Source: Escherichia phage PECP20
Sequence record: OQ873415.1
Length of the DNA: 64,000 nucleotides
Strand: one strand, 5' to 3'
Every line of letters starts with the position of its first letter. Positions within the stretch are counted from its first letter, which is position 1. Below are positions 20,271-53,935 of the stretch, piece by piece. The notes below the pieces were generated by a model that worked only from the letters and a program-made list of their open reading frames with translations, was not told the origin of the DNA and ran no database searches. The position numbers and the translations under genes are program-made.

Positions 20271-20300
20271 TTTATTCTCCAGATGTTTAAGTTGTTTGTT

Positions 20301-20340
20301 GGTACAGGTATATAATAACATATCCTGTACCAAAGTAAAC
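20301..20340 (-). promoter_or_regulatory. early promoter embedded in a palindrome
   Basis: Minus strand GTTTAC (plus 20335-20340); inverted repeat GGTACAGG/CCTGTACC (20301-20308 and 20324-20331) flanks the AT-rich -10 region. Confidence 0.45.
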
Positions 20341-20344
20341 TGTT

Positions 20345-20713
20345 TTATGCAACTTTAATCCAATTGTCTAAATTTAAAACACCTTTGGCTTTCATTTTTT
20401 CGATCAGGTTATCTGCTGTAATGCGTCCATTTTGATACCATGTAACATCTTCAGAGTAACCAGTTTCTTCGTCAACATATGTTTCTGAGCGAATTTTACC
20501 GGTAATAATAGTTTTTAATTCGTATGTGTCACCTGTGAAAAAGTTTGCTAACACAATTTTCCAAGAGAAATCATTTGAAGGACCTTCAGGGGTCATACAA
20601 CTTACGAACTCAAATTGCTCTTTGTATAACATCCACTGGAATTCTTTAATTTCGATAGCTTTATAACCGTCGTGTTCTTTACATTTGATGTATGAGTTCA
20701 GATTGATTTTCAT
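20345..20713 (-). CDS. hypothetical protein (122 aa)
   Basis: ORF with its own upstream promoter cassette. Confidence 0.5.
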   Translation of the reverse strand: MKINLNSYIKCKEHDGYKAIEIKEFQWMLYKEQFEFVSCMTPEGPSNDFSWKIVLANFFTGDTYELKTIITGKIRSETYVDEETGYSEDVTWYQNGRITADNLIEKMKAKGVLNLDNWIKVA

Positions 20714-20755
20714 TTTATTCTCCAGTTTGTTTTATTGATTAGGTGGTACAAGTCT

Positions 20756-20784
20756 ATAGTAACACATCCTACAGGAGAGTAAAC
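20756..20784 (-). promoter_or_regulatory. early promoter
   Basis: Minus strand GTTTAC (plus 20779-20784), 17 nt, TACTAT (plus 20756-20761). Confidence 0.45.
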
Positions 20785-20810
20785 ATCTTTTTAAACTTTT
20801 TCTGCCCTAA

Positions 20811-20838
20811 ACGCACAAAAGGGAGACCGAAGTCTCCC
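20811..20838 (-). terminator. rho-independent terminator
   Basis: Minus strand GGGAGACTTCGGTCTCCC then TTTTGTGCG; the 24 nt including the hairpin are identical to the gene 32 terminator at 35551-35573. Confidence 0.65.
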
Positions 20839-20843
20839 TAAAA

Positions 20844-21023
20844 TTATGCAACAACCTTTCCAAAACGAGAAGCATCATCTCGAAGAACTGCACGTGCTCT
20901 GCGCATGATCTTCTCAACTGTTTGATTAATACGAGAGTTCGACCCACGCTTGTATCCAGCGCGTTTAGAGGTACCATCAACTTTCTTTTCAACTGCTTTC
21001 TTTGCTTTAGCTTGTTTTGCCAT
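20844..21023 (-). CDS. small highly basic protein (59 aa)
   Basis: Hand-translated minus-strand ORF MAKQAKAKKAVEKKVDGTSKRAGYKRGSNSRINQTVEKIMRRARAVLRDDASRFGKVVA, ending 5 nt before the terminator hairpin; absent from the track because it is under 60 aa. Confidence 0.5.
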   Translation of the reverse strand: MAKQAKAKKAVEKKVDGTSKRAGYKRGSNSRINQTVEKIMRRARAVLRDDASRFGKVVA

Positions 21024-21286
21024 TATAAATTCTCTTTAAATGAAAATGCAGGACTTATTGACATTGCCTGCGCAAGCCCTCATGGGGAACATAGGTTTTG
21101 GATATTTAACGACAGGATAACCATAAACCCGTCATCATACCAACCACGACTTAGACAGATAACCTTTTTCTGACGCGTGATAGTACAAAATACATTCAAG
21201 AGGTACACCGTAAAACTGCCGGGGTCTTAAAACTATAATGATTCGCAAATCATTAATCAGACAATTCGACGGCTCCTCGATTTAAC

Positions 21287-21535
21287 TTACTTCAGGGTAA
21301 TAACAAAATGACGTACTGCTTTACGAGCTGCTGAAGCCAAAGGCTTAGCATATTTCAGTTCATCTTTTGCTTCCAGTTCAGCAGCCAGAGTAGCCTGAGC
21401 AGGATTCAGATGTTTGAAATATCGCAGGATTTCCAGTGCTTCGGCTTCAACATCAATTGAAGCGCCGTAGTTTTCGTGACCGTTATTCCATGCGTTGCGT
21501 TGCAGATCAAGAGCGTGTTGTAGTTGTTTAATCAT
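21287..21535 (-). CDS. rIII: rIII lysis-inhibition accessory protein
   Basis: 82 aa; MIKQLQHALDLQRNAWNNGHENYGASIDVEAEALEILRYFKHLNPAQ, T4 rIII-like. Confidence 0.9.
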   Translation of the reverse strand: MIKQLQHALDLQRNAWNNGHENYGASIDVEAEALEILRYFKHLNPAQATLAAELEAKDELKYAKPLASAARKAVRHFVITLK

Positions 21536-21651
21536 TTTAAATTCTCAATTCGAGATAATATTTAGTAGCCACGTTCGTCTGAATTTCACCTTCTTTCGAC
21601 AAGTCTCTCAGTTGTAGGCTACCGCTTAGAAGAGTGTTCTCTTCATATAGT

Positions 21652-21659
21652 TATTTATA
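21652..21659 (-). promoter_or_regulatory. late promoter (TATAAATA) upstream of rIII
   Basis: Plus-strand TATTTATA at 21652-21659, abutting the gene 31 stop. Confidence 0.45.
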
Positions 21660-21992
21660 TCACTTATAAAGACACGGAATAGCTTTATAGTGGCATGTTA
21701 CGAATTTCTGTTTAATTTCTTTAGGTTGTTTAAGTCCCAAAGCCACAAATGGATGTGGAACATTTCGAATTTGTCCAACTGGTAGTGGAGTCAAATCACC
21801 GACTTCAACAAAACCTTCAGGAACATCAGGACCTACAGAATGAACTACACATAGTTCAGGAACTTCACCTTGAACACGTTTACCAATCACAAGTCCTGAT
21901 TCGGTAACTTCTTCATCACCTGCTTGAGCGGGTTCAGAAACCAGAATGACATATTCACCAACAGCACGAATTGGGAGTTGTACTTCAGACAT
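21660..21992 (-). CDS. 31: gp31 co-chaperonin (GroES analogue)
   Basis: 110 aa; [60 protein letters not shown], near-identical to remembered T4 gp31. Confidence 0.95.
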
Positions 21993-35466: not shown

Positions 35467-35492
35467 TTTGATTTCCTCATGTTGTTGATAGG

Positions 35493-35524
35493 TCTATACT
35501 AACACATCCATGGAAGAAGTAAAC
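35493..35524 (-). promoter_or_regulatory. early promoter cassette
   Basis: Minus strand GTTTAC (plus 35519-35524), about 19 nt, TATAGA, then CAACAACATGAGGAAA block; same cassette family as 13400-13429 and 27835-27864. Confidence 0.4.
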
Positions 35525-35550
35525 AACTTTTTCGGCAATTTACAGATACT

Positions 35551-35573
35551 CAAAAGGGAGACCGAAGTCTCCC
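35551..35573 (-). terminator. rho-independent terminator downstream of gene 32
   Basis: Minus strand GGGAGACTTCGGTCTCCC then TTTTG, 6 nt after the gene 32 stop. Confidence 0.7.
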
Positions 35574-35579
35574 GATTTA

Positions 35580-36482
35580 TTATAGACCAGCTAACAGGTC
35601 ATCGAGGTCGCCATCATCAGAGGATGAGGTAGAGCTCATGAAGTCATCTTCAGTTTTTGCAGAACTAAAGGCTTCCATGTCTTTATCAAAATCGTCAAGG
35701 TCAGAAGCAACTTTATCTGCAACAGAAGCTGCTGCGGCTGCTGCACCACCAAGAGCGGCAGTACCAAGAACCTTAGCGAAAGATTCATTTAATTTTTCAA
35801 AGGATTTGAACTGGTCTTTAGCCGTCAAAGTAGTAAGGTCTACCATCTGGTCATATAGTTCTTTCTGGAATGCTTCGTCATTAATACGAGGAATTTCAGA
35901 TTGACCCAAGAATTTAGATTCGTCGTAGTTGCTAAAACCAGAAACCTGCTTAGCTTTCAGAACGAAGTTAGCACCTTCAAACGGACAAGTAACATCAACT
36001 GGAGTTTCACCCATTTCGGTATCAACTGCAATCATTGCATTGATTTTGTCCCAAATCTTTTTACCGAAACGATATTTAAATACTTTACCTTCGTTATCTG
36101 GAGCTTGAGGGTCTTTAACAACCAGAATATTAGCCCAATAAGAAGTTTTACGTTTCAGTTGAGAATATTCAGTTTTGTTGGTATTGTACAGGTCATTTTT
36201 ACTAATGTACTGACATACAGGACAAGAGTCGTAATCACCATGTGTAGAAGAGCAATTTTCAATATACCATTTACCATTTTTCTTGAAACCGTGGTTAACA
36301 AGAATTGCAAATGGTAGTGCATCATCAGTTTTTGCTGGCAAGAAACGAATTACCGCTTGACCATTACCTGATGCATCTAGCTTCAGCTTCCATTCGCCTT
36401 TATCTTCTGAAGAGAAACCTTTGTTACCGTTCAGTTTAGCCATTTGAGCAGCGAGGTCAGCAGTAGATTTACGTTTAAACAT
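35580..36482 (-). CDS. 32: gp32 single-stranded DNA-binding protein
   Basis: 300 aa; [36 protein letters not shown]... and acidic C-terminal tail [22 protein letters not shown], near-identical to remembered T4 gp32. Confidence 0.97.
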
Positions 36483-52609: not shown

Positions 52610-53935
52610 TCAAAGTGCCTCCAAGTCTTTAGTGTACTCTGACACAACATCAGTAGACTTCCAATACTCATTTTCTTCTTTCTTAGCTTTAGCTTCTTCT
52701 GCTAGTTTACGTGCTTCGTCAGAAGTGATATGGAAGATGTTAAGACCTACCAATTTATCGATATGTTCTTTATACATTTCGATTTGTGCTAGCTCTTCAG
52801 TCAAAGCTTTACGAGTCTTGCCTTGAATCACAATTTCGCCACTGATAACTTTTTTGATGAAGTGTGCCTTAGCAAAAGCCAGTTTAAATGCTTTTTCAGA
52901 TTCAATGATTTTGTTATCAATACGTTTCTGAACGTAAGTCTTACGGACTTCAACAAAATCTTTGATTAAGTCCACTACGTTATCGTAGACCGTTAATTTA
53001 CCCTTTTCATTAATCACTGTGATGTTTTGTGAACGACGTTCGATGAGACTAAAATCTTTCATGATTTTTTCATGACGTAGCTCTTCATCATCAGGAAGCG
53101 AGTACTCTTTACGGAACTTCACCTTAAACCCAAAACCGTGTTCACCACAATCATCTTCCCATGAGATTAGACCTTTGTCTTCCAACGGGTCAAGAACCTT
53201 ACTCACATACGTTTCACGGTCGAATTTATATGGGATTTCAGTTATCTGCATTTGAGTGCGAGATGTGAACTTATATGTTCCGTGAATCTCATAACGCCCA
53301 TCAACTTCATGCACTTCACCGCGGAATTCCGGGAATTCAACTTTTGGTTTAGTGACATTTTTACCTTGAAGAGCTTGTAATACAGCCTTTTTGACCGATT
53401 TAAAACTATGAGGCAGAATATTTGTTGCGTAACCGGTTGCAATACCAGAGACACCGTTCAAAAGAACTGTCGGAATAATAGGAAGATAGAATTTTGGTGG
53501 AACGTGTTCTTTATCTTCATGAGCTGGAGCATATTCGGTATCTTTATAGACATTATAGAAATTTTTGCTTACACGAGCAAAAATATAACGAGATGCTGCA
53601 GCTTTTTGGACTGTTCGAGAACCAAAGTTGCCTTGACCATCTAATAGTGGATAGTTGTTATTCCATGTGTTAGCCATCAATGCACCTGCATCTTGTGCAG
53701 AAGATTCACCATGGTGATAACCTAAATCTGCAACACCGCCTGCAATTGACGCAAGTTTATGAAATTTTTCTTTATTACCACGAGCCAAATCTAATGCACG
53801 ATGAACCACAAAACGTTGAACCGGCTTAAATCCATCAATCATGTTTGGGATTGCACGGTTTTCAACGGTGTACATAGCATATGCTAAGGCTTCGTTATCA
53901 ATAATACTTTTTAGATTACGAGAATTCAATTGCAT
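52610..53935 (-). CDS. 52: gp52 topoisomerase II medium subunit (GyrA-like)
   Basis: 441 aa; MQLNSRNLKSIIDNEALAYAMYTVENRAIPNMIDGFKPVQRFV, T4 gp52-like; T4 gp52 is 442 aa. Confidence 0.95.
   Translation of the reverse strand: MQLNSRNLKSIIDNEALAYAMYTVENRAIPNMIDGFKPVQRFVVHRALDLARGNKEKFHKLASIAGGVADLGYHHGESSAQDAGALMANTWNNNYPLLDGQGNFGSRTVQKAAASRYIFARVSKNFYNVYKDTEYAPAHEDKEHVPPKFYLPIIPTVLLNGVSGIATGYATNILPHSFKSVKKAVLQALQGKNVTKPKVEFPEFRGEVHEVDGRYEIHGTYKFTSRTQMQITEIPYKFDRETYVSKVLDPLEDKGLISWEDDCGEHGFGFKVKFRKEYSLPDDEELRHEKIMKDFSLIERRSQNITVINEKGKLTVYDNVVDLIKDFVEVRKTYVQKRIDNKIIESEKAFKLAFAKAHFIKKVISGEIVIQGKTRKALTEELAQIEMYKEHIDKLVGLNIFHITSDEARKLAEEAKAKKEENEYWKSTDVVSEYTKDLEAL

Follow-up and report, generated by a model that had tools for sequence, protein, structure and literature searches.

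Gene 30.9 of phage T4 (130364..130540) encodes a 58-amino-acid protein (NP_049823.1; UniProt P17310) that was catalogued in T4 decades ago and has no assigned function. The neighbouring gene rIII encodes a protein that binds ribosomal protein S1 (PMC9409239). In a published time-course data set, the 30.9 transcript (T4p212, P17310) falls in the early class and the protein class is NA, meaning undetected in the proteome (PMC9697503 Table S2), a result that says little either way because a lysine/arginine-rich protein of 6.6 kDa yields very short tryptic peptides. CRISPRi-ART knock-down of 30.9 in T4 caused no fitness defect ('Not Fit', score 0.04, p 0.26; PMC11879866 supplement), and a 2003 paper in Biologija is on record on the in vivo expression of rIII and 30.9. 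Our literature search found no account of gp30.9 function.

The 30.8-30 cluster, which follows 30.9, is reportedly preceded by a terminator and early promoters in 16 T4-type phages, as described by Truncaite and colleagues in 2006. Composite terminator/early-promoter cassettes of T4-like phages have been named PeSLs, for promoter-early stem-loop (PMC2839356, PMC4122927).

Here we analysed a stretch of 64,000 nucleotides from Escherichia phage PECP20 (OQ873415.1), hereafter the window, which derives from a T4-like phage of the Mosigvirus type. The analysis centred on a minus-strand open reading frame (ORF) of 59 codons and on the RNA around it (Table 1).

Table 1. Features at the 30.9 locus and related elements in the window
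Feature	Coordinates	Strand	Basis or remarks
CDS, T4 gene 30.9 orthologue, 59 aa plus stop	20844..21023	-	Invariant core SKRAGYKRxSNxRI; C-terminal amphipathic helix
Overlapping 61-aa ORF, +1 frame, TTG start, running through the terminator	20807..20992	-	Judged spurious
Intrinsic terminator: stem-loop GGGAGAC-UUCG-GUCUCCC (20821..20838), then UUUUGUGCGUUU	20809..20838	-	Fold, conservation, covariation
T4 early-promoter-like site GTTTAC-17-TACTAT, for downstream 30.8	20756..20784	-	Consensus only
Second cassette: 18-nt stem-loop identical to the 30.9 terminator (35556..35573), then GTTTAC-17-TAGTAT	35490-35580	-	Sequence
rIII-30.9 spacer, 263 nt	21024..21286	-
H1: AUGACGGG-loop-CCUGUCGU (21109..21135), conserved single-stranded tail GUUAAAUAUCCAAAAC	21092..21146	-	Covariation
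H2 (candidate, short): CCC(C)-auga-GGG	21077..21087	-	Variants GCC..GGC (locus L043) and CCUC..GAGG (locus L016); weaker evidence
H3: GCAGG(C)-aauguCaauaa-(G)UCCUGC	21048..21071	-	Covariation
H4: AUUUUC-auuuaaa-GAGAAU, pairing the Shine-Dalgarno-like AAGAGA	21029..21047	-	MFE folds
Element X, ~60-nt structured RNA in the rIII leader	21559..21627	-	Between TATAAATA at 21659 and the rIII ATG at 21535

The 30.9 orthologue and its reading frame

In a DNA comparison, the 601 bases around the ORF matched Escherichia phage CCU7 at 100% identity and PhAPEC2 at 99.2%. CCU7 carries an annotated CDS at the same coordinates (XYS98038.1) that is 100% identical to the ORF of the window, the PhAPEC2 gene (PhAPEC2_200) is annotated as 'similar to gp30.9 NP_049823' (NP_049823.1), and the T4 protein is itself nearly identical to the 59-aa product. 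A sequence-only reading of the window had called this ORF unannotated, a label that followed from the first-stage ORF track only and that proved wrong, as the CDS is annotated both in T4 (NP_049823, P17310) and in CCU7. The predicted protein matched the profile phrog_1427, a family of unknown function, over residues 1-57 (E=2.4e-31); the same profile was matched by 23 of 23 diverse family members, and tblastn found relatives in 1006 phage records. Several GenBank phage records name the small 30.9 ORF '1,4-alpha-glucan branching enzyme', apparently a mistake in annotation that has been passed from record to record.

On the minus strand of the window, the gene order is dCMP deaminase (cd), 31.1, 31 (co-chaperonin), rIII, 30.9, 30.8 and 30.7, and rIII was found upstream of 30.9 in 38 loci. 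The position is conserved beyond what sequence alone would indicate, since a 171-kb phage has a distant member (26% identity) flanked by a gene 31-like ORF and the DNA ligase gene, with no rIII in this place. On the basis of homology and gene order, the ORF is the orthologue of T4 gene 30.9 and the last cistron of a 31-rIII-30.9 stretch. These comparisons also show that 30.9 has been kept in both sequence and position across the Straboviridae, between gene 31/rIII and the cluster that extends from 30.8 to DNA ligase. Finding 30.9 again changes little in itself; it mainly shows that the ORF track chose the wrong frame.

That frame is a 61-aa ORF overlapping the 59-aa one, and the sequence-only reading had set it aside as spurious in favour of a hand-translated ORF, which does exist at the position given there and translates exactly as stated. 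We compared the two frames across forty related loci from IMG/VR, plus T4. Within the 59-aa frame, third codon positions were the most variable (mean column entropy by codon position 0.53/0.45/0.94), and pN/pS was below 1 (0.17-0.83) in 34 pairwise comparisons with the window. Log-odds scoring of codon usage, with the 35 long ORFs of the window as training set, a comparison of both frames that had been proposed as a check, gave 0.76 for the 59-aa frame, in line with real 59-codon pieces of genes in the window (0.60+/-0.21), versus -0.38 to -0.41 for the 61-aa frame. The start, Met-Ala/Ser-Lys (MAK), is conserved and the sequence upstream of it is not; in the window, a TAA stands five codons upstream of the ATG. 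T4 differs here by one extra A upstream of the 30.9 ATG (locus L003 ~2040-2160, equivalent to T4 130540-130660), which removes this in-frame stop and, by opening the T4 frame, gave rise to the 97-aa '11.1 kDa protein in Gp30-rIII intergenic region' entry that is still in UniProt-derived sets.

We considered whether the 59-aa ORF might not be the functional unit at all, with the 61-aa ORF being the gene or the region acting as non-coding RNA only. The 61-aa ORF is present and stays open in the closest relatives, but among the 40 loci and T4 only the window, the T4 group and locus L016 keep the +1 frame open, and most other relatives have one to seven stops in it. It also begins with TTG, crosses the terminator hairpin, has the codon usage of an off-frame sequence and found no family match in PHROGs or Pfam, whereas constraint at the protein level on the 59-aa frame extends across more than 1000 genomes. 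The comparative data rule against this alternative and leave it effectively refuted. They show that the 59-aa frame is a genuine protein-coding gene, and the earlier choice of frame was right, given these frame statistics and a phrog_1427 match for the 59-aa protein and none for the 61-aa ORF.

The 59-aa protein has a mass of 6.6 kDa, a pI of 11.35 and a net charge of about +12.5; it contains 10 lysines and 8 arginines, or 30.5% basic residues, which agrees with the 'about 30%' quoted previously. Its N terminus is rich in lysine and alanine and of low complexity, with AKAKKA-type repeats, and the first 15 residues are the least conserved in the family. The family alignments place the conserved part after this segment, in a motif [ST][KG]RxG[YF]KRx[ST]NxR[IV][ND] followed by a helix, which the protein of the window fits; R21, K25, R26 and R31 are invariant and G23, Y24, S28 and N29 nearly so. 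AlphaFold2 (AF2) modelling with the family alignment gave a pLDDT of 66.8, with the N-terminal half at low confidence and residues 30-54 confidently helical; this helix is predicted to be amphipathic (hydrophobic moment 0.59).

The family comprises 65 clusters at 90% identity and is phage-specific. Among 1.84 billion representative proteins, a profile search picked up no more than 21 clusters, each of them this same small phage protein; one 617-aa repeat protein that it also matched was a false positive. Members are small and basic, from 46 to about 100 aa, the longest being N-terminally extended ORF calls or proteins with extended C termini. A sensitive homology search, which the sequence-only reading had named as a further check, placed the protein in phrog_1427 and returned no relative from Pfam, NCBIfam, PADLOC, PDB or Foldseek that would give it a function: the best matches fell short of significance in Pfam (E=0.14), NCBIfam (E=0.034, far short of the cut-off) and a PDB-sequence profile search (a helix of SlmA, E=0.13), PADLOC gave no match, and Foldseek found 0 matches for the AF2 model in PDB and BFVD.

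Terminator and leader RNAs

Between the TAA stop codon of 30.9 and an 18-nt stem-loop lie 5 nt (UUUUA), and UUUUGU comes next after the stem-loop, as the sequence-only reading had described in placing a terminator 5 nt after the ORF. The stem is GC-rich, with 7-8 bp and a UUCG loop, and the U-tract has four U before a G, where most relatives have 5-8 U. A simple consensus terminator scan of the window missed this hairpin; its folding energy is -19.2 kcal/mol (z -4.4), and 0 of 200 shuffled sequences folded as well. The PhAPEC2 record marks an ARNold-based terminator at the same place, and a hairpin with a T-run directly follows the 30.9 stop in 39 of 40 loci. The stem occurs in several versions, including GGGAGAC/GUCUCCC, GGACUCC/GGAGUCC, GGGACUC/GAGUCCC, GGGAACC/GGUUCCC and GGGGCUCC/GGAGCCCC. 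In an alignment of 16 distinct versions, all cells (100%) were paired and four of the seven pairs had changed on both sides, a value that none of 500 shuffles reached and that controls slid along the alignment did not come close to. These data point to a genuine, conserved and covarying intrinsic terminator that closes 30.9.

The early-promoter-like site predicted for 30.8 lies 37 nt past the terminator stem, and the two together make a PeSL-like cassette. The second copy of this arrangement in the window follows a gene 32-like ORF (35580..36482).

Upstream of 30.9, the spacer to rIII has an unusual length, and distant relatives share parts of its nucleotide sequence. The spacer is mosaic, being about 50 nt longer in the window than in T4. 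The reading frames of two small ORFs within the spacer (21080..21208 and 21135..21248) are not conserved, and we found no convincing sigma-70, MotA-box or late consensus promoter site in the leader. Transcription of 30.9 probably reads through from rIII or from promoters further upstream. A search of positions 20300..21700 against Rfam gave only sub-threshold chance matches (E<=1).

Four hairpins, H1 to H4, can be drawn in this leader. The folding energy of the single sequence was no better than that of shuffles (z -0.4 to -0.7), so the case for structure is built on covariation. For H1, 85% of cells were paired in alignment A3, compared with 30-53% in slid controls, covariation was 0.40 versus at most 0.14, and four pairs had changed on both sides; a covariance model of H1 (R1) found a single copy in the window (E=5e-15). 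The alignment of the whole region from H2 to the ATG (A4, made with MAFFT) was structurally inconsistent, and H3 was therefore tested on an anchored mini-alignment (A5), its arms having been extracted by sequence anchors. There, the closing stem of H3 was 94% paired versus at most 47% in slid controls, with five of six pairs changed on both sides, and it took at least six different sequences at that anchored position. The window type also allows an alternative pairing, AGGGCUUG/UAAGUCCU, that competes with H2 and H3. The last hairpin, H4, pairs the AAGAGA that lies 5-10 nt upstream of the 30.9 ATG; in other clades, UCUCC-aaaa-UGGAAGA occupies this position as its counterpart. The structured leader suggests that 30.9 is under translational control.

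A further structured RNA, which we call element X, precedes rIII in the window, where its closing stem is GGUAGCC/GGCUACU, its internal loops are UACAAC and ACGAACGUG, and GAAA caps the inner stem. In Klebsiella-type T4-like phages, H3 is replaced by element X, so that X lies upstream of 30.9 instead of rIII; there it forms a 60-nt hairpin in three tiers, which has a GAAA tetraloop and is interrupted by the internal loops UACAAC and A(A/C)GAACGUG. Seven versions could be aligned without gaps, and this alignment was 97.5% paired, as against at most 45% in slid controls, and 8 of 17 pairs had changed on both sides. The covariance model found exactly one element X per locus, before either rIII or 30.9, and a hairpin pairing the Shine-Dalgarno sequence comes after every copy. 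Element X is absent from Rfam, and our literature search found no description of it. A second match in the window (53442..53516, plus strand; 15.9 bits, E=0.18) lies antisense in a topoisomerase-subunit-like gene (52610..53935, minus strand) and was judged to be due to chance.

Possible roles of gp30.9

From the extreme positive charge, the variable lysine/alanine-rich N terminus and the invariant Arg/Lys/Tyr motif, we infer a polyanion-binding peptide. In our best explanation, gp30.9 would be disordered alone and take up its fold on a polyanion. The R-x-G-Y-K-R-x-S-N-x-R motif and the amphipathic helix at the C terminus would serve to bind nucleic acid, with RNA or the ribosome as the likeliest target, and the protein would act as a dispensable early accessory factor in host takeover or RNA metabolism. 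Its own translation would be gated by a leader hairpin that occludes the Shine-Dalgarno sequence. Taken as a whole (a 30.9 orthologue, a putative nucleic-acid-binding accessory factor and leader-gated translation), we hold this explanation tentatively, at somewhat short of an even chance. Nucleic-acid binding, which the sequence-only reading had also suggested, is a reasonable reading of the composition, although basic peptides can bind acidic proteins too, and none of the Pfam, NCBIfam, PADLOC, PDB-sequence or Foldseek searches returned a match that would speak for it.

A serious rival to RNA binding, if on the whole an unlikely one, is that gp30.9 binds a protein and, small and made early, inhibits or modulates some host protein, for instance in countering defence or in adjusting the activity of a host enzyme, much as many dispensable early products of T4 do. 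An early transcript together with the lack of a knock-down defect in a laboratory strain is a pattern typical of accessory and anti-defence genes, a strictly conserved motif between variable flanks would fit a specific interface, and the product of the neighbouring rIII gene binds host ribosomal protein S1 (PMC9409239). Against this, nothing points to a target, neither PADLOC nor any other family search gave a match, and the extreme positive charge and lysine/alanine-rich N terminus are more typical of nucleic-acid binders. The known DNA-mimic anti-restriction proteins are acidic, whereas gp30.9 is basic. It would be improbable, in our estimate, for gp30.9 to be instead a histone-like DNA-binding protein, coating or compacting the DNA of the phage or the host, or, in the more specific version, a packaged internal head protein. 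Its high lysine, arginine and alanine content, its AKAKKA-type N-terminal repeats and its small size would suit such a role, and the sequence-only reading had likened the protein to internal proteins. This likeness found no support, however. The family alignment has no conserved L/I-x-E prohead-protease site in the N terminus (MAKQAKAKKAVEKK) and no capsid-targeting start of the internal-protein type, and it is the 15 N-terminal residues that vary most; the 263-nt leader directly upstream has no late promoter TATAAATA, the nearest being the one at 21659 ahead of rIII; no known DNA-binding family is similar; and the T4 time course put the transcript in the early class and did not detect the protein (PMC9697503). 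A more far-reaching proposal, that gp30.9 is an RNA-binding translational regulator, possibly autogenous, that recognizes H1, H3 and element X, seems to us improbable. If it were true, RNA-binding gp30.9 and the rIII-S1 interaction would together form a previously undescribed phage module controlling translation in early infection.

The product of 30.9 is among the more strictly conserved 'unknown' early proteins of the Straboviridae (invariant RxGYKRxSNxR), yet it is dispensable in the laboratory, and this combination makes gp30.9 a defined candidate for studies of host takeover or RNA metabolism. The structured leaders are a more interesting by-product of the analysis than the 30.9 gene itself: covarying structures that are not in Rfam, in the leaders of both 30.9 and rIII, make translational control of a small operon directly testable.

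Comparison with known systems

The T4 internal proteins IPI, IPII and IPIII resemble gp30.9 in being small and basic; gp30.9 differs in that it is not homologous to them, lacks signatures of capsid targeting or protease cleavage and has no late promoter of its own. The autoregulated operators of T4 (the gene 32 pseudoknot, the gene 43 hairpin and the RegA sites) and the leaders of ribosomal-protein operons have a structured 5' leader at or near the ribosome-binding site. The 30.9 leader shares such structure ahead of a gene for a putative nucleic-acid-binding protein, but the likeness is one of analogy only, as the leader has no sequence or Rfam similarity to these operators. The cassette at the end of 30.9 resembles the PeSLs in its GC-rich stem-loop terminator, in a T4 early promoter within about 40 nt and in the repetition of the motif in the genome, whereas the published PeSLs come from the RB49/phi1, PST and nt-1 phage pairs and have stem consensus sequences that differ from those of the window.

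The closest match is T4 itself. The T4 leader is about 50 nt shorter than that of the window, and the two proteins, of 58 and 59 aa, are near-identical except at residues 15-18 and the last four (VGD in T4 and VDGT in the window; C-terminal KQKA and KVVA, respectively). In both phages, 30.9 lies downstream of rIII, with the same placement of the terminator and the same conserved blocks in the leader.
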